The notes: a model not told the origin generated them from the letters alone. 64,000 bases of DNA from an uncultured bacterium (GCA_963977015.1 CAXBMO010000002.1:352001-416000), one strand, 5' to 3'; counted from the stretch's first letter, positions 23,435 through 32,878 are shown. Made by a program: numbers and translations.

Positions 23435-25648
23435 ATGAACAGATTTCCATTTCGTCGGGTTTCACACTTTTCATCGCGAGGCGCATCCCCTCGTTGGATG
23501 CTGCTTTTTCTTGCGATCACGCTCCCGCTGATCATTGCCACGGTCACCTTTTTGGCGCTCAACGGTTCCATTTCCATTCCGGAATCGCTTAGACCTGCTC
23601 CAACCGAAGTGCAGCGAATCGCACCGATTGAGTTTCCGGACGGCGTGCCGGATGCGTCGGATATCCGTCCCAAGGTTGAATCCTGGATGCGTAAAAACTG
23701 GATCAAGAACGCTCCGAACCGCACCAAAGCTGAAGCTGACTTTCTGACCGCCGCCATTGCCTGCGAGCTTGATGCCCCGAAAGCTCCCTCCTCCTCCCAG
23801 TTATCGATTCTGGCGGAAGCGCTGGAAGCGAATCCGGAAAGTGATCCGATCCTGGCTTACCTCGTCGGGATCTGGCATCGCGACAATGAAGTTGCCATCC
23901 CCTTGCTGAGAGAGTGCATCAAGCATCTCGACCAGACTCCCGGCCAGGAGTCGACGGCGTGGATGGCGGCCGTTCAATACGCCCGCCGGCTCTTCCGGTC
24001 CGGCAACCAGGACGATTTTCCCATTGCCCAGGCCGCCGCAACCCAGGCGCTCCAATTGCTAACGAAAGCTCTGGACGCCAATCGCGGATATGCGGACGAG
24101 GATGACTGGGTCGCAGAATATATTTTGCTCGGGTATGGAACCGGTCATCGGCGTCCGGGGAGAAAGGAGTTCCTCGCCGAGAACTACGCCAAGTTTGCCA
24201 CGGTTGCATCCAACCACCCCGACCTTCCCTCCTGGCTCAAGCATTGGATCCTCGGGCTCGCCTACAACGCGGAAGGCTGGGAAGCGAGAGGTGGCGGCTA
24301 TTCCGATTCCGTCACCCAAAAGGGCTGGGAAATCTTCTATGCGAAGATGGCGCAAAGCGCGGAACACCTCGAAAAAGCCTATCTTGAGAATCCGAATCAT
24401 CCCGGTCCGGCAGCCTCCCGCTGTTACGTTGCATTGACCTACAGCCAAACACCGATTCGAGAGATGCGACTGTGGTTCGATCGTTCCACCGCCGCTCAAA
24501 TCGACTATTCCCGCGCCTATCGAACGATGCTGTGGGGACTCCGGCCACGCTGGCATGGGAGCAAAGGAAAGATGCTCGAATTCGGCCTTCAATGCATGAA
24601 TTCCGGCAGATTTGACAGCGATGTGCCCTGGGAATACCTCACGGCTCACCGTGACATCGCCTCGGAGTGGGATCTTCCGGATTACTACTATATTGAATTG
24701 CGAAAACGGGCTGCGTTCGACTCGCTTTTCGCCGGTTACGAAGCATCGCCCGAGCGGGAACCCTGGCGAGAATTCGATCGGTCCCGGGCCGCCGTTTTTT
24801 GGTACAAATGTCAGGATTACACCAAGGCATGGCCGCTGCTCGAACAACTCGACTTCCAACTTGATCCGCGCGTTCTCGAAGAATGGGGACTGGAGAATTC
24901 CAGCTTTCTGGTTGGAAAAACCGCCGCATTTGCCAGCTCAGCCGGTGACAACCTCATCGAAGCCGAAGATGCGGAAGTCGATTTCGATGCCGAAACGGCA
25001 GTCACGCTCTATCGCCAGGCCCTCGATACCCCGGGTATGAACGAAAAAGCGAAGCCGTTCCTCCGTGACCGCGTTGTCATGATGGAGATGGAATCCCATT
25101 TGGCAGCCAATGAGGAAACGTCATTCCTGCCTCAAGCGGACTCGGACGGAGCCGGTTGGGTCCGCGAGGGGGATCATTGGTCTCTGGAAGACGGGCTAAC
25201 TTGGAACGGGGGAACCGGTCGAGCCCTCTTCACCGCATTGGCGCGAATCGGTCCGATTTTCACCATGACCGGCGAGATTGAAATCGACCCGGGAACGTCG
25301 GAACAAGCGTCGGCCTTTGTGGCTTATGGCTATCCCGGCGCCAACAAATGGAGCGATTGGGCCAGCGTTCGATTCCAGATCAACAAGGGCGAGGGAATCG
25401 TCTCGGCGGGACAAAGCTACGCTCGCCCCCGCGACTCCGCCCTTGCCCCCATTCAGGAACGCTTCACGTTCGAGCTGTCGGTCGATAAAATGATGATCAA
25501 CCTCAAGATCAACGATTCCCCGGTTATGACCGACGTTCGCCAAACAAAAGGCGTGGTGACCCAGTTTTACTCCCAACTTGGCCTCGGCATTTCTTCAGAC
25601 AATCCCGAGGCTTCCATCCGATTCACCAACGTGAAATTGCGGAAATAG
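23435..25648 (+). CDS. Membrane-anchored DUF4034-like/TPR-like protein with C-terminal beta-sandwich
   Basis: N-terminal TM; WEARGGGYSDSVTQKGWEIF and LRPRWHGS motifs. Confidence 0.65.
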   Translation: MNRFPFRRVSHFSSRGASPRWMLLFLAITLPLIIATVTFLALNGSISIPESLRPAPTEVQRIAPIEFPDGVPDASDIRPKVESWMRKNWIKNAPNRTKAEADFLTAAIACELDAPKAPSSSQLSILAEALEANPESDPILAYLVGIWHRDNEVAIPLLRECIKHLDQTPGQESTAWMAAVQYARRLFRSGNQDDFPIAQAAATQALQLLTKALDANRGYADEDDWVAEYILLGYGTGHRRPGRKEFLAENYAKFATVASNHPDLPSWLKHWILGLAYNAEGWEARGGGYSDSVTQKGWEIFYAKMAQSAEHLEKAYLENPNHPGPAASRCYVALTYSQTPIREMRLWFDRSTAAQIDYSRAYRTMLWGLRPRWHGSKGKMLEFGLQCMNSGRFDSDVPWEYLTAHRDIASEWDLPDYYYIELRKRAAFDSLFAGYEASPEREPWREFDRSRAAVFWYKCQDYTKAWPLLEQLDFQLDPRVLEEWGLENSSFLVGKTAAFASSAGDNLIEAEDAEVDFDAETAVTLYRQALDTPGMNEKAKPFLRDRVVMMEMESHLAANEETSFLPQADSDGAGWVREGDHWSLEDGLTWNGGTGRALFTALARIGPIFTMTGEIEIDPGTSEQASAFVAYGYPGANKWSDWASVRFQINKGEGIVSAGQSYARPRDSALAPIQERFTFELSVDKMMINLKINDSPVMTDVRQTKGVVTQFYSQLGLGISSDNPEASIRFTNVKLRK

Positions 25649-25750
25649 CCCGTCAACATGCAGTTGGACCGATTCCCAATAGTCGGGATTGATCTAAAAC
25701 TCATCTTCTTTCTTGCTTCGAACTCTGTTCTTCTCTATCAAACTATCGCC

Positions 25751-27226
25751 ATGGAGGAGAGTCATTTTATTGAAGCCCTGTCGCAGTCAGGGATTTGGAA
25801 ATTTTTTAGAGAAGAAGCTTTTTGGAAGCTCATAACCATTCTGGGGGCAATTGTCGCGGTTGGCAAAGCGATGCGTGAATACTACCGAATGAAGTCGGCC
25901 TTTCGCGAGAAAGAGAAGGAACTGCAAGACAGCAAAAACAACAATATTAGGCTAGCTGCCGAGTCGGAAAAGAAAATTGCTACGCTTCAAACGCGACTGG
26001 ATTATCAGGAAAAGACATTGTCGCTCTTTCAAGAAGTTGGTGCTGACGGTACAGAAGCCCCCGATCGTGTTCCGATTGACAAGAATGCCCTGCTGAATGC
26101 GGTAAAGAATGGAGCAAAACAAATGATCGAGTTGAACCGCAAATTAGAGGAGGCCAAGAAAAAGAGCGTCTGGTATTTGCCCGCTAAACGTACGATCCTC
26201 CCACGTGAATCCAAAACCAAGTTCATCGCCCTCGCTAATTTGAAAGGCGGCGTAGGCAAGAGCACTATTTCCGCGAACTTGGGGGCTGAGTTGGCTAGTC
26301 GCGGTAAAAAAGTATTGCTGGTCGATCTGGATTGGCAACAATCGCTGACCCGACTTTCGCTTACTAAACTCCAAACCCGCACCCATTTTGCCGGAGACTC
26401 CGGCGCGGTGAGCGATGCGCTTCTCCGCTACTGCAATGACGCTGAGGACGTTATGCACGAATTCCGCCCCGTTCGTGTTGAGCGCGAGAATACGGAACTT
26501 TACGTCCTCCCAGTGCCCTACCGGTTGATGTTCGCCGAAGATCTCGCTCTCATCAGTTGGTTTGCCGACGACTCTAAGGAGGATGCTCGATTCGTTGTCG
26601 CCAACCAGTTGCAACGTTGGGCGGAAAACTTTCAACCAAATCCCAATCATGATTCTACAGTAGATCTCGACTACGTAATCTTGGACTGCCCACCGCGATT
26701 GACCGTCAGCATGACCGCTGCTCTTTCCTGCGCCGATCTCGTTGTGGTGCCTAGCCTTCCAGATGAAACTTCACTCAATGGTGTGGGATTGCTCTTTTCC
26801 GAGCCACTCCGAGATTTACGCAATATCATTTGGCCTAAACCGGAAGAAGATCTTTTATCCACGACTCCAGTTTTCGGATTGGTTTCGAATCGTGTCTATC
26901 GAGCTGACTATATACCGGACGCGGTCGAGTCAGTTCGCGAAGTGGCTGAGGGGCTTAACCTTCAGCACCACGATTTCTCAATTCAAGCATCCACCACTGG
27001 CATTGCTCAGAATTCCGCGTTCCGTGATGCGGCCGAAAGTACGAGACAGGACCGCCGCCAATTCGCGATGGACTTTTCCGGAGATGGACCAAAAGAACAA
27101 CTCGCAGGTTTGGCTAACGATGTCGAGCGATGGTTGGAATCAACTCCGGCACGCCCTTCCGTTGCTCCATCAACCAATCGAATCGCCCAACTCACAGGCA
27201 ACCGCACTCAGGCATTAAGGCCATGA
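25751..27226 (+). CDS. ParA/MinD-family ATPase with N-terminal TM helix and coiled coil
   Basis: Deviant Walker A LKGGVGKST, A' DLDWQ, Walker B ILDCPP; hydrophobic FWKLITILGAIVAVG followed by a charged helical region. Confidence 0.88.
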   Translation: MEESHFIEALSQSGIWKFFREEAFWKLITILGAIVAVGKAMREYYRMKSAFREKEKELQDSKNNNIRLAAESEKKIATLQTRLDYQEKTLSLFQEVGADGTEAPDRVPIDKNALLNAVKNGAKQMIELNRKLEEAKKKSVWYLPAKRTILPRESKTKFIALANLKGGVGKSTISANLGAELASRGKKVLLVDLDWQQSLTRLSLTKLQTRTHFAGDSGAVSDALLRYCNDAEDVMHEFRPVRVERENTELYVLPVPYRLMFAEDLALISWFADDSKEDARFVVANQLQRWAENFQPNPNHDSTVDLDYVILDCPPRLTVSMTAALSCADLVVVPSLPDETSLNGVGLLFSEPLRDLRNIIWPKPEEDLLSTTPVFGLVSNRVYRADYIPDAVESVREVAEGLNLQHHDFSIQASTTGIAQNSAFRDAAESTRQDRRQFAMDFSGDGPKEQLAGLANDVERWLESTPARPSVAPSTNRIAQLTGNRTQALRP

Positions 27227-27675
27227 AGGTTGAAAAACTGATCCAGCTTCTCAAATCTAACGAGATTGCAGGGAACCTTTCCCTTCAGGAGCGCAACGAG
27301 CTTGCGTCCCTGATTCATGGTCTGAAACGGGTTGAACACCTTGATTTGGCGACCTTGGTCAAGGCTTGCCACACCATAAAGCTGCCAAAAAAACGAGCCG
27401 CATCGCCTAGATCATCAGCCACTGTCGAGACTTCCATTGCCCGGCTCAATTCCCTAAAAGAAGAAGTGCGTAAATGGACGTCGCCGGACTACGGCGAAGT
27501 TGATCGCGTTGTCAAAGCTGCCTGCAGCTCCCTGAAAAAATCTGAGGTCTCCCAAGTCGCCAAAGCCACACTTGGCAAAACCCATTCCAGTAAGACTAAG
27601 TCCGATATCATCGAAGCCATTGCCCGTCCATACCTCCGACAGCTGGAGCTTCGGTTCATGAACGCAGGCTCGTGA
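27223..27675 (+). CDS. Small basic helical protein with C-terminal HeH/Rho-N-like motif
   Basis: ATG 27223 overlaps the ParA stop (ATGA); C-terminus LKKSEVSQVAKATLGK...KTKSDIIEAI. Confidence 0.7.
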   Translation: MKVEKLIQLLKSNEIAGNLSLQERNELASLIHGLKRVEHLDLATLVKACHTIKLPKKRAASPRSSATVETSIARLNSLKEEVRKWTSPDYGEVDRVVKAACSSLKKSEVSQVAKATLGKTHSSKTKSDIIEAIARPYLRQLELRFMNAGS

Positions 27676-27735: not shown

Positions 27736-28476
27736 TCAGATCCGATTCAACAACTCGGATTTTTTCGCGGCAAACTCCTCGTCGGTCAACACACCGGCAT
27801 CCCGGAGCTTCCCAAGTTGCTCGAGCAAACCAACCACGTCAGCCGACATGGTGTTGCCGGTCCCAACTTGCTGGGGAGCAGGTGCCGCTGGAGGCTCTGC
27901 AAAATTGGTCGGCGGCTCCGGCTGAAGTCCCGGACCAGAGATCAAGGGCAGGCTCAGGGTCGAAATCGTTCCGTATTGGCTCGAAAACGTGAGCGAAGTG
28001 TTGCCCCCCTGCTGCTGGCTGACTCCGCTGATTTGGTGATCCAGGGTGTCAAAAACCGTGACCTGACCATCCCGCTGCACCACGAGGCGCCGAGCCTGCG
28101 GAAAAAAGGCATATCGGATATTGTTCTGCGAACCACTGCTGGAGGGAGCCCCGAGATCCCCGGGCCACCAATTGCTTCCACCCCAGGCATTCTTCGGCGG
28201 AGGCTGAAACATTTGGTTGTTCGCCAGCGCATTCGAAAGCTCGCTGCACAAATTGTTGACCGTGTTCTTGAGCTGATAGTTGAACAAATCGCCAACCATC
28301 GTCATTCCACCACTCATCCATTGCCCGCTCCCCAATTCCGGGCAACTGAACTGGGCCATGGTTCCGCCGCCATTGTTCACGGAGATCAGCATCGACACCG
28401 CCGAGTCAAAGCTGAGATTGTAGCGACGAGCAATGTCGTTGATGATGTTTTCTCCTACGGGAGTCAGTTGGTTCAT
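27736..28476 (-). CDS. SHOCT domain-containing protein
   Basis: C-terminal LEQLGKLRDAGVLTDEEFAAKKSELL; QWMSGGMTMVGD and NWWPGDLG motifs. Confidence 0.85.
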   Translation of the reverse strand: MNQLTPVGENIINDIARRYNLSFDSAVSMLISVNNGGGTMAQFSCPELGSGQWMSGGMTMVGDLFNYQLKNTVNNLCSELSNALANNQMFQPPPKNAWGGSNWWPGDLGAPSSSGSQNNIRYAFFPQARRLVVQRDGQVTVFDTLDHQISGVSQQQGGNTSLTFSSQYGTISTLSLPLISGPGLQPEPPTNFAEPPAAPAPQQVGTGNTMSADVVGLLEQLGKLRDAGVLTDEEFAAKKSELLNRI

Positions 28477-29116: not shown

Positions 29117-32100
29117 CTAGGATGCGCCATTCCCATTCCCCAGCCCGTAAGCCGGATCGACACTTTCCGCGACGGTCTCGGCATTCGGATTGCCGCCGGG
29201 AACCGATTTCTTCGCCCGGTCGCCCGAGGAGCTGAATTTCATCCCGAGCGTTTTCGAAACCCCAAATTCTTCCATCGAGACGCCATACATCACGTCGCAA
29301 CGGCTCATGGTCCGTTTCGAGTGGGTCACGATGATGAACTGGCTTTCGTTGATGAAGCGGTCGAGCACGCGGATAAAACGCTCGATGTTGGCTTCGTCGA
29401 GCGGGGCGTCGAGCTCATCGAGGACACAGAACGGACTCGGCTTGACCATGTAGATCGCGAACAGGAGCGCGACCGCAGTCATCGAGCGTTCGCCTCCGGA
29501 AAGCAGACTGATCGATTGCAGCTTCTTCCCGGGCGGTTTCGCGATGATCTCAATTCCACTTTCGAGCGGATCTTCGTCATCGAGCAACACCAGATTCGCC
29601 TGCGCGCCTTTGCCGAACAACTCGGTAAACATCTCGCGAAAATTCTTCGACACCTTGACGAAGGTCTCCGCAAACATCGCCTTGGTCGTCTTGTTGATCT
29701 TCTCGATCACCTTAAGCAGCTCGTCCTTTGACTTCACGAGGTCGTCATGCTGCTCCACCATCAGGTTGAAGCGCTCCTCCAATTCGTCGTATTCCTGAAT
29801 CGCGTCGAGGTTGACCGGCCCCATCGAATCCAGCTTGCGGCGAAGTTCCACCGTCGCCTCTTCCACGAATTTCCAATCCGGCTGCGAATCATCGGGGATC
29901 TCGGGCATTTCCGACTCCGCCGCGTCGTCCTTACCAGGCGCAATTTTCAGCTTTTTCTGCGTTTCGGCGATCACGCCGAGAAGCTCGTGGGAATCCGGTT
30001 CGAAATTCTCCAACTCCACCTGATAGCGCTGCCGAATCGCGTCGTTCAAATTCTCCATCCGCAACTCCAACTGCGTCGAGCGAATCTCCTCGTTGCCGCG
30101 TTGTTCCGCCATCTTCGCGACTTGTTGCCGCATCGTCACCAGCTTTGCTTCGCCCTGCTCGATTTCACTGAGAAGCCCGCCGCGTTTCGTCTCCAAACTT
30201 CCCCGCCGGTCCAGCACTTCGCCACGTTGTTTGGTCAGCGACGCGATCTCGGTGCGCAACGTCTCGTTTTCCTCGGTCGCCTCATCGATCCGGACTTTGT
30301 AACCGTCGATATCCGCATTGCGACGTTGAATCACTTCCTCCAACTCCCGAAGCCGGCTCGACATCGGGGCGCGCTGTTGTTCGAGCGATTCCCGGGAGCG
30401 TTTTTCGACGGCCAGCGCCGTTCTCAACTCATTCAGCAACACCGTCGCTTCCTCTTCCTTCTCGCGAATCAGTTGATGACGGGTTTGCAACTGGCCGGTC
30501 TCCGTCTCCAGTTTTTCAATCGACTCACTCGCCTCCGCACGGCGCGATTCCAACTCGGACTGCTGCGCCTGGGCCGCGTCCATCCGCTTGACCAATTCCG
30601 TTTCTTCCCACGTCAGGCTTTCCAGTTTGCTGTCCTGTTGCTGAACCTCGCGCTGCACCATTGCCAGTTGACCTTCGACAGTCGAAATCTCGACTTTCAA
30701 CTTCTGCAGACGCTCGCGATGCGCTTCCACATCGACCTGGGATTCGGCAACCAAATCATCAAGGCCATTCACGCGTTTCCGCTCGGCCTCCAGCTTCGTT
30801 CGGATCTTCGCCGTCAGTTTCTCCAGCCCGCGAATTTCCGCCTGTCGTTCCAGAATTGAACCCGCGCCGCTTTCCTTGAAGCCGCCGGTCAGAACGCCAC
30901 CTGCGCTCAAAAATTCGCCGGTCAGGGTCGCAAAGGCCACGCCGGGCAATTCGTCGCGCAGCGCAAGAGCCCGGTCCAACGAATCCACGAGCAACACATT
31001 CTGAAGGAGGCCCTGCACCACCGCTTCCACGTTGGGTTCCGCGCTGACTTTGTCCGCCGCCCATCCCAGGGATGCGGGGTGAATGCTGAAGGAAGAAAGC
31101 TCGGGCTCCGATTCCTTCTTCAAAATCAAATCTTTCGGGATCAGCGACGCCTGGCCCAATTTTCCCTTCTGCAAGCGCCCCAAAATATCGCGAGCCGCCA
31201 CCGAATGCGCAACCAACACCGCCTGGAGATTCTGCCCCAACGCCGCTTCAATTGCCGGAATGAACTCCGGAGCCACCTCGATGAAATTCGCGATTGCTCC
31301 CAACACCTCACCTTTCATTCCCCCGCCTTCATCCTTCAGGACCTCCTGCGTTCCACGCTCGAACCCCTCCCCCGTTGCCACGAGTTGTTGCAGGGTTTCC
31401 AGGCGCGTCTGCTTCTTGGTGATCTCCCGCGTTAGCTCAGCCTCAGCTTCCCGCGCCGAAACCAAATCACGCTGCGCTCCCACGAGCCCGTCTTCCAACA
31501 GCTTCAGCTCCAGTTCCAACTCCGTGCGCTGTGCCTCGCGTCCCGTTTTCGCCTTCTCCAATTCCGTCAACTCCGCCACTTTCTCTTTTCGCTCCGTCTC
31601 GATTCGCCCTTTCTCGTCTCCCAGTTTACCAACCCGCTGCTGACTGCTCGTCATCTGACTCAAGCCATTCTCCAGCTGGGCCGTCAATGTCGTCACCAGG
31701 CTCTCCGCCTTTCCCAATCGACTGCGGTTTTCATTCAGCGCCTGCTCCACCTGACCCCGCTCGCGTCGAATCCCATCCGTCTGTTCCAGGCGCCGTCCGA
31801 GATCCGCCTCCTGCACCCCGATCTGCTCGGCCATCGCTTTCAGCGTCTCATCCGCCGCGCTCAAATCATCCCGTTGCGTCGCCAGTTTTTCACGACTCGA
31901 AGCGATATCCGCCTCGTTCCGCTCGATCAACGTCCGCATCTCCACCCCGCGTTCCTCGTTGAAGCGAATCCGGCTCGTCGCCTCCTGGATTTTCCCCTGA
32001 AGGTCCGACTCCCGTTGGCGCAAATCGCTGATCTCGCCCTCAATCGCCTGAAATGCCGCCCGCGTCTCATTAAGCCCCGTCTGTCCGCCCTCAATCTGGG

Positions 32101-32878
32101 TCTGCAATTCCTCGTGCTGGGTTCGCAACGCCCCGATGCTCGTGACCAACTCCCCCCGCTCCGCCCGCAGTTCCGCAAACTGCCGATGACTGAAATGCGT
32201 ATCGAGCACCCGCACCTGCTCCAACAGCGTCGCATACCGCCGCGCCTTGCTTGCCTGCCGTTGCAGACTCCCCATCTGGCGCTTTTGCTCCTCCAGCACA
32301 TCCACAATCCGCACCAAATTCGCCTCGGTGTAATCCAGTTTCCGCAGCGCCTCTTTCTTCTGCTGCTTGAACTTCGTGATTCCCGCCGCCTCTTCAAACA
32401 CCTGCCGCCGGTCTTCCGGCTTCGAGCTCAGGAGCATATCGATCTTCCCCTGCTCCATCACCGAATAGCTTGACCGCCCGATTCCCGTATCCATGAACAG
32501 GTTGTTGATGTCCTTCAACCGGCACGGCTTGTTGTTCAGCAAATACTCGGACTTTCCATCGCGATACACCCGGCGCCCGACACAAACCTCGTTGAATTCC
32601 ACGCCCAGCGCCCCTTCACAATCGCCCAGTGTCAGAAGCACCTCTGCCAACCCCAACGGTTTCCGCTTCTCCGTTCCATTGAAAATCACATCCGCCATCT
32701 CCCCACCGCGCAGCGCCTTCGCCGAAGTCTCCCCCAACACCCACCGAATCGCATCCACCACATTCGACTTTCCACACCCATTCGGCCCCACAACCCCCGT
32801 CACCCCCGGGTGAAACTCGAGCTTGGTGTTGTCAGCAAACGACTTGAAGCCGTTCAGTTGGAGCGAACGCAAAAACAT
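29117..32878 (-). CDS. smc: Chromosome segregation protein SMC
   Basis: GFKSFA, GPNGCGKSN, long coiled coils, hinge (IEAALG...TLTGE...GGVLTGG), LSGGE and LDELDAPLD. Confidence 0.97.
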   Translation of the reverse strand: MFLRSLQLNGFKSFADNTKLEFHPGVTGVVGPNGCGKSNVVDAIRWVLGETSAKALRGGEMADVIFNGTEKRKPLGLAEVLLTLGDCEGALGVEFNEVCVGRRVYRDGKSEYLLNNKPCRLKDINNLFMDTGIGRSSYSVMEQGKIDMLLSSKPEDRRQVFEEAAGITKFKQQKKEALRKLDYTEANLVRIVDVLEEQKRQMGSLQRQASKARRYATLLEQVRVLDTHFSHRQFAELRAERGELVTSIGALRTQHEELQTQIEGGQTGLNETRAAFQAIEGEISDLRQRESDLQGKIQEATSRIRFNEERGVEMRTLIERNEADIASSREKLATQRDDLSAADETLKAMAEQIGVQEADLGRRLEQTDGIRRERGQVEQALNENRSRLGKAESLVTTLTAQLENGLSQMTSSQQRVGKLGDEKGRIETERKEKVAELTELEKAKTGREAQRTELELELKLLEDGLVGAQRDLVSAREAEAELTREITKKQTRLETLQQLVATGEGFERGTQEVLKDEGGGMKGEVLGAIANFIEVAPEFIPAIEAALGQNLQAVLVAHSVAARDILGRLQKGKLGQASLIPKDLILKKESEPELSSFSIHPASLGWAADKVSAEPNVEAVVQGLLQNVLLVDSLDRALALRDELPGVAFATLTGEFLSAGGVLTGGFKESGAGSILERQAEIRGLEKLTAKIRTKLEAERKRVNGLDDLVAESQVDVEAHRERLQKLKVEISTVEGQLAMVQREVQQQDSKLESLTWEETELVKRMDAAQAQQSELESRRAEASESIEKLETETGQLQTRHQLIREKEEEATVLLNELRTALAVEKRSRESLEQQRAPMSSRLRELEEVIQRRNADIDGYKVRIDEATEENETLRTEIASLTKQRGEVLDRRGSLETKRGGLLSEIEQGEAKLVTMRQQVAKMAEQRGNEEIRSTQLELRMENLNDAIRQRYQVELENFEPDSHELLGVIAETQKKLKIAPGKDDAAESEMPEIPDDSQPDWKFVEEATVELRRKLDSMGPVNLDAIQEYDELEERFNLMVEQHDDLVKSKDELLKVIEKINKTTKAMFAETFVKVSKNFREMFTELFGKGAQANLVLLDDEDPLESGIEIIAKPPGKKLQSISLLSGGERSMTAVALLFAIYMVKPSPFCVLDELDAPLDEANIERFIRVLDRFINESQFIIVTHSKRTMSRCDVMYGVSMEEFGVSKTLGMKFSSSGDRAKKSVPGGNPNAETVAESVDPAYGLGNGNGAS

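Follow-up and report, generated by a model that had tools for sequence, protein, structure and literature searches.

A ParA/MinD-type ATPase with a predicted membrane anchor and its overlapping small partner: a probable member of the ParA-HeH class in an uncultured bacterium

What is the role of a ParA/MinD-type ATPase that carries a hydrophobic helix at its N-terminus and overlaps the gene of a small, lysine-rich protein? The question was raised by two genes at positions 25,751-27,675 of a 64,000-nucleotide stretch of DNA from an uncultured bacterium (GCA_963977015.1, CAXBMO010000002.1:352001-416000). The whole stretch is hereafter called the window, and coordinates without a prefix are positions in it. 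The initial annotation had described the two genes as an orphan and undescribed cassette, serving either DNA-to-membrane positioning or defence. Our analysis indicates that the pair very probably belongs to the ParA-HeH (helix-extended loop-helix) architectural class, which was defined by Li, Burroughs and Aravind (bioRxiv 10.64898/2026.10.19.760177, 22 Oct 2026). As set out in the main text of that preprint, such a system joins a ParA of the ConB1 clade to a rapidly evolving variant-HeH protein in a two-gene neighbourhood, in 22 divergent clusters, and its subtype iii has a transmembrane (TM) helix and a coiled coil N-terminal to ParA. The architecture had thus already been described there as subtype iii; since that description is computational only, the condition set in the initial annotation, a match to an already characterised system, applies to the pair only in a weak sense.

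The pair consists of two open reading frames (ORFs) and their junction.

25751..27226, plus strand: gene of the ParA-type ATPase with predicted anchor (P0001, 491 amino acids); ORF translation and Pfam AAA_31
27223..27675, plus strand: partner gene (P0002, 150 amino acids); translation, homologues after related ATPases, a profile search and the ratio of nonsynonymous to synonymous substitution rates (dN/dS)
27223..27226, plus strand: ATGA overlap, read directly (partner ATG at 27223-27225, ATPase stop TGA at 27224-27226)

The two-gene unit is conserved and paralogous, and its partner family is very rare. The window's genome (G000) carries three complete pairs, here called C2 (the window copy), C5 and C19, and a fourth, solo ATPase on C22; since pairs were also found in all three congeners (G001-G003), the cassette is not an orphan. 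Conservation of the gene pair, a check suggested in the initial annotation, was borne out at the 14 loci of family ATPases that had readable downstream DNA. A 280-amino-acid ParA from Eremiobacterota (L025; 21% identity, lacking both the extension and a partner) was left out of this count as a non-family protein. A clear partner homologue follows the ATPase at nine of the 14 loci. A probable distant partner follows at two more, both from Planctomycetota (hhalign E=8.3e-5, probability 61%, collinear over 139 columns). At one locus (G031), a 155-amino-acid protein occupies the same layout as a positional analogue, with homology that is not demonstrable (E=0.014, probability 3%). The remaining two loci (G000:C22 and G001:C8) showed no partner and no detectable remnant of one.

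Some features of individual loci should be recorded here. Both solo ATPases, at G000:C22:53723-55375 (L034:9224-10873) and in G001:C8 (L023:5488-6876), have the predicted anchor, and the former is followed by a 193-amino-acid ORF with a lipoprotein-signal-like start. The partner of one Planctomycetota locus (L022:6575-7116) is read as two overlapping ORFs and is intact in the sister genome (L024); the split may stem from a frameshift or from misassembly.

The distribution of the two genes was examined at several depths. Among 41 genomes, namely that of the window and 40 relatives, the ATPase was found at E<=1e-20 in five: G000, the three congeners and a single genome from a different family of the order. 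The partner profile matched in G000 and the three congeners, and in none of the 37 others, among them members of 21 further genera from the family to which the window's bacterium belongs. When one genome per species was scanned, more loci appeared in Verrucomicrobiota and Planctomycetota. With a profile of six sequences, 23 partner matches were obtained among 1.84 billion representative proteins, 18 of them at E<=1e-10, and when a profile of these 23 sequences was run on 401 genomes from 185 genera of the phylum, G000 was the sole match (0/400 others). A word-index search with the partner recovered the query alone. The anchored type of ATPase is much commoner than the partner: the word-index search with the ATPase gave 663 matches at E<=0.001 among 7999 scored candidates, the closest relative being P0004 with 56% identity. 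A metagenome scan with P0001 yielded only an identical 6.5-kb scaffold (L038). Judged from these sequence searches, the partner family appears to be restricted to the Planctomycetes-Verrucomicrobia-Chlamydiae (PVC) superphylum, and the pair would be a rare member of the ParA-HeH class.

The ATPase core was analyzed with an alignment of 25 family sequences (A4) and with an AlphaFold2 (AF2) model.

26219..27139, plus strand: ParA/MinD ATPase core, residues 157-463; AF2 strands and helices, Foldseek to Soj/ParA
26237..26266, plus strand: deviant Walker A motif NLKGGVGKST, residues 163-172; translation, with N163, signature K165, V168 and catalytic K170
26324..26338, plus strand: Walker A'/sensor-1 motif DLDWQ, residues 192-196; translation, with D192, D194 and Q196
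26339..26671, plus strand: variable region from strand beta2 to Walker B, residues 197-307; indel-rich columns 415-560 of A4, AF2 secondary structure
26684..26698, plus strand: Walker B motif DCPPR, residues 312-316; translation, invariant in A4

P0001 is a ParA/MinD ATPase (SIMIBI, deviant Walker A), since all the defining motifs are present. N163, K165, G166, G167, V168, G169 and K170 are invariant in A4, as are D192, D194 and the DCPPR motif, and Q196 is nearly so. Pfam assigned residues 157-349 to AAA_31 (E=1.2e-26), followed by CbiA (2.3e-15), with MipZ and ParA below. The top Foldseek matches of the core were the Soj/ParA structures 9a6n_A, 8ray, 6iub and 2bek (E about 1e-13, target template-modelling scores 0.78-0.79). 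The intact core reported in the initial annotation was therefore confirmed. In the AF2 model, 116 residues separate beta2 (187-192) from the Walker B strand (308-312). This region, the indel richness of which was judged qualitatively, holds a clade-specific insert at about residues 293-307 (FQPNPNHDSTVDL), which spans 13 residues in A4.

The searches with curated family models bear on another reading of the ATPase, according to which it would be a regulator of polysaccharide export resembling a bacterial tyrosine (BY) kinase (Wzc/CapAB), or an organiser of secretion of the BcsQ type. The ATPase superficially resembles Wzc in joining a ParA-like P-loop domain to a TM segment and a helical region; several database relatives are automatically named "cellulose biosynthesis protein BcsQ", and weak matches to eps_fam and BcsQ were obtained. 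All the NCBIfam matches, however, were far under the curated cut-offs and mostly covered the P-loop alone: 45.8 bits against a cut-off of 157.85 for BcsQ and 28.1 against 108 for eps_fam (both with coverage of the P-loop only), 76.4 against 180 for ParA_partition, 58 against 348 for RepA, and 44.9 against 212.9 for minD_bact. The motif of the ATPase is DLDWQ and not DxDxR, which is the motif of BY-kinases. The last 60 residues contain no tyrosine, so that there is no tyrosine cluster, and the protein has one hydrophobic segment and no periplasmic loop. No polysaccharide or cellulose gene was found beside any of the loci. We give this reading almost no credence.

An N-terminal extension of about 156 amino acids precedes the core, and an extension before the P-loop was also present in all 24 fetched homologues. 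In P0001 it was divided as follows.

25817..25867, plus strand: hydrophobic N-terminal helix, residues 23-39, predicted membrane anchor; Kyte-Doolittle hydropathy, charge bias, AF2
25868..26164, plus strand: charged helical stalk, residues 40-138; AF2 model m60873d45ecf9, charge count

The best 19-residue Kyte-Doolittle window reached 1.64 at residues 23-41 (AFWKLITILGAIVAVGKAM), which is borderline. Of the 25 family proteins, P0001 included, 23 had a best window of 1.6 or more, many of them with values of 2.2-2.7, which agrees with the hydrophobic helix first annotated. Since the 15 residues ahead of the segment contain two lysine or arginine residues and the 15 behind it six, an N-out/C-in topology fits, in keeping with the positive-inside rule. 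AF2 with the family alignment gave a mean predicted local distance difference test score (pLDDT) of 85 and a predicted template-modelling score (pTM) of 0.73. The stalk was modelled as one unbroken helix (residues 22-95), a low-confidence break (97-104) and a second helix (111-138); residues 40-140 contain 21 Lys and Arg and 17 Asp and Glu. A crude heptad score of the P0001 stalk was matched by 73 of 300 shuffled sequences, as against 16 or fewer of 300 in five of the eight family members tested. Of the coiled-coil-like stalk in the initial annotation, the long helices were thus retained and the heptad signal was not, as far as the window copy is concerned. The models support a single anchor followed by a long helical stalk. 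A true coiled coil is likely in the family, and the stalk of the window copy itself is described here as a long helix only. Three ATPases that have a partner (L019, L020 and L021) lack the hydrophobic helix; an anchor is thus optional in this module.

The extent of this extension depends on the start codon. An upstream ATG at 25658 would give a protein of 522 amino acids, longer by 31 residues. Because the closest homologues, P0004 and P0005, start near the position equivalent to 25751, the shorter form of 491 amino acids, and with it the start at 25751, is favoured, though not proven, from the sequence comparison.

The partner is a basic protein with 17 lysines (27 Lys and Arg against 16 Asp and Glu), and both its composition and the ATGA overlap were as initially annotated. 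Its AF2 model (mbb085decc6a8), calculated with an alignment of 23 sequences, had a pLDDT of 88.6 and a pTM of 0.56, and was divided into four parts.

27223..27375, plus strand: N-terminal helical domain, residues 1-51; AF2 helices 3-12, 14-18, 21-35 and 42-51
27376..27417, plus strand: basic linker rich in Lys, Arg, Pro and Ser, residues 52-65 (IKLPKKRAASPRSS); block of lowest pLDDT
27418..27660, plus strand: C-terminal four-helix domain, residues 66-146; AF2 helices 66-84, 90-101, 106-117 and 126-146, pLDDT 93-97
27532..27627, plus strand: HeH/Rho-N-like helix-extended loop-helix, residues 104-135; AF2 helix 106-117, loop 118-125, helix from 126

The length of the linker varies in the partner alignment (A3). 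The C-terminal domain has invariant L78, W85 and L141, a PDY motif and a terminal RFMN. The initial annotation had pointed to the segment LKKSEVSQVAK...KTKSDIIEAI as HeH/Rho-N-like; it corresponds to residues 104-135 and is followed by a conserved tail (ARPYLRQLELRFMNAGS). The helix-loop-helix shape of this segment was reproduced by AF2, and the Rho_N matches that bear on the family assignment were sub-threshold. Positions 5-34 of Rho_N aligned to the equivalent segment of a relative, P0140, with E=0.0017 and 18.7 bits (cut-off 24.9), and to one of the two tandem domains of P0138 with E=0.033, also sub-threshold. One further family member matched HeH/LEM along a short stretch, 13 residues in the second helix (E=0.0068). 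The nearest named protein-atlas cluster consists of Rho_N proteins to 68% (score 0.83), which is to be taken as a lead only. A search for Rho_N in the relatives found examples in three of 13 genomes, too few for a profile comparison. No family of Pfam or NCBIfam matched the partner. Its model had no Foldseek match in the PDB at E<=0.001 (best 0.29), and a wide VIA-align search gave a best Z of 6.4, from generic helical matches over residues 63-150 only. The best match of the partner profile to PDB sequences had E=0.027 and was to unrelated proteins. Taken together with the model, these matches are consistent, albeit weakly, with a helix-loop-helix that resembles HeH/Rho-N. Complex prediction with ATPase residues 140-475 and the partner, using separate alignments, returned a score of 0.00, which is neutral on interaction.

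The partner profile also matched the giant protein P0138 (4437 amino acids), in which two partner-type C-terminal domains stand in tandem at residues of about 1290-1500. In the first, the Rho-N-like segment is near-canonical; the second has the ending HRFANQGA, like the free partners. No Pfam family matched P0138 at E<=0.001. This giant protein may belong to a mobile element as a polyvalent protein.

The selection acting on the unit was estimated from the C5-type orthologues of G000 and G003. The ATPases are 89% identical, with dN 0.059, dS 1.33 and dN/dS 0.044; the partners are 65% identical, with dN 0.258, dS 1.26 and dN/dS 0.20. These ratios are rough, because dS is saturated (>1). Purifying selection acts on both genes, with an approximately fourfold higher rate of change in the partner. 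The copies differ in composition. The window pair has a GC content of 0.51 and a third-position GC content (GC3) of 0.52-0.56, against 0.56 for the GC of the genome and 0.64-0.73 for the GC3 of three neighbours. The GC3 of the C19 pair is lower than that of the window pair, at 0.43-0.47. The C5 pair has a native GC3 of 0.64 and sits between the gene of a pyrophosphate-dependent phosphofructokinase (PPi-PFK) and folD in G000, G002 and G003. Since it keeps this place in three species and has native GC3, the C5 copy looks stably inherited. We read these data as one old resident copy (C5) and later arrivals (the window pair and C19), the window pair looking like a later acquisition among several divergent paralogues.

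The foreign-looking copies bring in the possibility that the pair is the remnant or cargo of a mobile element, that is, a maintenance, partition-type or exclusion module that served the element and was left after its integration. The low GC and GC3 of the window and C19 pairs relative to the genome would fit such an origin. The window copy was not found in the three congeners, nor was its upstream neighbour, an ORF of 737 amino acids (23435-25648, plus strand) that ends 10 nucleotides before the alternative ATPase start. This ORF has an N-terminal hydrophobic segment and gave no match in Pfam or PADLOC; with a GC3 of 0.64 it is native in composition, unlike the pair. In the main text of the preprint the clade is traced back to classical ParAB systems (bioRxiv 10.64898/2026.10.19.760177), which would also suit a mobile ancestry. 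A search of the ATPase core against a phage collection matched only ParAs of phages and plasmids (31 records, all below 34% identity over most of the query). However, no integrase, transposase, phage gene or tRNA flank was noted within four genes of 11 loci among the best 25 of 75 Pfam families, no scan for tRNAs being made, and there is no parS-type partner or ParB. Partition ParAs are not known to carry a membrane anchor, which also speaks against this origin. We therefore regard a mobile-element remnant as distinctly improbable.

The genomic context was surveyed with Pfam and PADLOC at the same 11 loci, in as many as four ORFs to either side and 80 ORFs in total, the Pfam results being taken from the best 25 of 75 families. 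The neighbours include smc, an msrB-like SelR gene, DUF1287, folD, PPi-PFK, fabD/fabG, lysS, uvrA and sulfatases, and further families were Cys/Met PLP enzymes, glycerate kinase and ADP-ribosylglycohydrolase. No ParB, Min, chemotaxis or microcompartment family was seen among these best 25 Pfam families, in agreement with the initial annotation, which had noted no such genes nearby. PADLOC gave matches to 49 models, each in at most three of the 80 ORFs, so that the defence-island enrichment that the initial annotation had proposed to look for did not appear. The leading models were ATPases of the ABC/SMC type (mad3, AriA, AbiLi, LmuB and GajA), and mad2, mad8 and PDC-S01 were also among those matched. 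Pfam proteins of the SMC_N type among the 80 neighbours were exactly three, namely SMC, UvrA and a 747-amino-acid protein near G001:C8; as the PADLOC matches were not mapped to ORFs, a true defence gene may still lie near one or two of the loci. The last of these, an SMC_N/AAA_23 ATPase at L037:12289-14529 (minus strand), lies three ORFs from the solo ATPase of G001:C8 and may account for some of the PADLOC matches to ABC ATPases.

In the window itself, smc (29117-32878, minus strand) ends 1442 nucleotides from the partner stop. None of the ten other surveyed loci has smc beside the pair, and its proximity, which had been noted as perhaps coincidental, therefore looks coincidental. Convergent with the pair is an ORF of 246 amino acids (27736-28476, minus strand) with a C-terminal SHOCT domain (Pfam, E=1.4e-8) and an N-terminal part that is rich in Gly, Ser and Gln and has no family assignment; among the congeners, it has a homologue only in G002:C19 (44-53% identity). 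Two gene arrangements elsewhere were also noticed. A FabD-type acyltransferase lies at most two genes upstream of the pair in one Verrucomicrobiota locus (L016:3006-3956, minus strand) and in both Planctomycetota loci (L024:2287-3195 and L022:3033-3941, plus strand); Acyl_transf_1 was found in two of the 80 ORFs, and inspection by eye also showed fabG and a plsX-like ORF. This adjacency may be due to chance. Sulfatase genes at G000:C19:1271-2731 (minus strand) and G000:C22:51404-53623 (plus strand), with 23% mutual identity, flank two paralogous ATPase loci; the Sulfatase family was found in three of the 80 neighbours, and the flanking probably reflects the many sulfatases in these genomes.

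The reading that we favour, with slightly better than even confidence in the proposed mechanism as a whole, is a membrane-anchored ParA-HeH module (subtype iii). One N-terminal helix and a stalk of about 100 residues would keep the ATPase on the cytoplasmic side of the inner membrane. Because every catalytic motif is intact, the Soj-like core would be expected to form dimers with ATP and to work as a switch or multimeriser driven by nucleotide. The specificity subunit would be the co-translated partner, which binds nucleic acid, a foreign protein or both, and controls the ATPase. The role of the module would be to restrain incoming mobile DNA of phages or plasmids at the membrane, the assembly of ParA on DNA being the effector step. 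In this scheme we infer membrane insertion, dimerisation through the stalk, binding of the partner to the ATPase, binding of DNA and an immune function. The main text of the preprint likewise predicts an immune role, in which the HeH protein senses invader DNA and restrains ParA, the freed ParA multimerises on DNA or blocks the ParB of the invader, and the TM helix and coiled coil provide localisation and multimerisation (bioRxiv 10.64898/2026.10.19.760177). An accessory gene of the conflict type would fit the patchy distribution, the divergent copies, the foreign composition of two of them and the fast evolution of the partner. As to the immune role against phages or plasmids taken by itself, we consider the case evenly balanced.

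Several observations weigh against this assignment. The neighbours at the 11 loci are mostly housekeeping or metabolic genes, unlike those of defence islands, no effector gene adjoins the pair, and the PADLOC results contain no defence-island signal, no family being present in more than three of the 80 neighbours. In the window copy, the hydropathy of the anchor segment is borderline and the heptad periodicity is non-significant. The C5 pair has the same place in three species whose divergence exceeds dS 1, with native GC3. The HeH matches are sub-threshold, and neither Foldseek nor VIA-align gave a specific match for the partner.

Some of these facts would be expected if the pair were a housekeeping device for positioning or tethering, in which an anchored ATPase and its adaptor place chromosomal DNA or cargo at the cytoplasmic membrane. 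The partner would then take the role of ParB, McdB or MinE, and each paralogue would have a cargo of its own. In positioning systems, ParA/MinD ATPases as a rule have small adaptors encoded next to them. The constant place of the C5 pair between PPi-PFK and folD in G000, G002 and G003 and its native codon composition argue for such a function, as do the purifying selection on both genes, the lack of an effector or a recurrent defence neighbour, and a core that is closest to chromosomal Soj/ParA. The unit is, however, patchier than one would expect of a housekeeping function, being found in none of 21 other genera of the family and none of 400 other genomes of the phylum. Two ATPase copies have no partner at all, and the window and C19 copies look foreign in composition. 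The partner's rate of evolution, about four times that of the ATPase, also counts against this role, as does the lack of a linked cargo gene cluster. A housekeeping role thus appears unlikely, though of appreciable weight. If it were true, bacteria would have a new way to attach DNA to the membrane.

A more specific non-immune scheme can be built by analogy with the eukaryotic nuclear envelope. HeH/LEM proteins of the inner nuclear membrane combine an anchor and a HeH DNA-binding element in one polypeptide, with no ATPase. By analogy, an ATP-gated ParA dimer fixed in the inner membrane by its stalk would capture chromosomal DNA through the HeH partner; the paralogues would anchor different loci or cargos in these PVC bacteria, whose genomes are large, and the stably inherited C5 would be the founding housekeeping member. 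We consider this DNA-to-membrane tether improbable. The two roles named in the initial annotation, DNA-to-membrane positioning and defence, nevertheless remain the two leading readings, and of these the anchored ParA-HeH module with an immune function is the one pursued here. Its minimal version, anchored and effector-less, asks whether ParA alone can serve as an immune effector or is still a positioning machine. G000 offers a natural comparison set for this question, with three divergent pairs, one of them stable and two foreign-looking, and one solo ATPase.

The pair was finally compared with known systems. The likeness to HeH/LEM proteins consists in a membrane anchor coupled to a HeH element to hold DNA, and no homology is claimed. 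MinD/MinE and McdA/McdB also combine a ParA/MinD ATPase with a small adjacent regulator, and MinD acts on the membrane. MinD binds the membrane through a C-terminal amphipathic helix, not through an N-terminal TM helix. The minD score of P0001 is, moreover, far below the cut-off, and no minC, minE or carboxysome genes are nearby. The ParABS system (Soj/ParA with Spo0J/ParB) provides the closest solved folds, and shares with the pair the signature lysine of the deviant Walker A motif and a partner gene adjacent downstream. The present partner, however, has no ParB family match, the partition models score far below their cut-offs, and the unit differs from ParABS in its N-terminal anchor and stalk and in its several copies per genome.

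In the defence library, the only match of the ATPase was to the PADLOC candidate PDC-M28B (E=1.6e-9). This model of 438 positions has its P-loop after about 120 positions and may represent a similarly extended ParA. However, the match covers only residues 146-194, around the P-loop, and the partner matches no PDC-M28 model; the PDC systems themselves are candidates and not tested systems.

A tested relative may exist in Salmonella. According to the main text of the preprint, a subtype with an added HEPN gene has been shown to be antiphage in Salmonella, and the class is otherwise computational (bioRxiv 10.64898/2026.10.19.760177). The RemAIN system of the Salmonella Gifsy-1 prophage comprises the ATPase RemA, the immunity protein RemI and the HEPN anticodon nuclease RemN, according to PMC13043305. 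We infer that RemAIN is the tested, HEPN-bearing example called "subtype 4" in the preprint. It would then be the only tested relative in the class, and resembles the present pair in that an ATPase and a small protein act jointly in anti-phage defence. It differs in being prophage-borne and in its third gene, the nuclease, which has no counterpart in the pair. When the ATPase core was compared with 50,697 phage records by tblastn, the 31 matches were to generic ParAs, with no Salmonella phage and no link to Gifsy-1 or RemA among them.

The closest correspondence is with the ParA-HeH class itself. Its main-text description gives as marks of the PriB1/ConB1 ParAs an Asn as the most N-terminal residue of Walker A, a Gln two residues after DxD and a Val in Walker A, and places a variable insert after strand beta2 (bioRxiv 10.64898/2026.10.19.760177). 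N163, Q196 and V168 of P0001 correspond to these marks and are invariant or nearly so in A4, and a long, indel-rich region follows beta2 here as well. Here too, two genes form the unit, one for a ParA homologue and one for a small helical protein that evolves rapidly. By hydropathy, the one N-terminal hydrophobic segment before ParA agrees with subtype iii, and the class as described includes systems that have, as here, no third effector gene. The assignment was made by description and by sequence marks, the main text of the preprint containing no mention of Verrucomicrobia or Planctomycetes. The HeH fold is only weakly supported in the present partner, and the context resembles that of housekeeping genes. 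A further difference is that the partner family found here pairs with unanchored ATPases too (L019, L020 and L021). Since the same partner family serves anchored and unanchored ATPases, the subtypes of the preprint are not separate lineages, and these loci offer comparisons by which the specificity of the partner and the role of the anchor can be approached.

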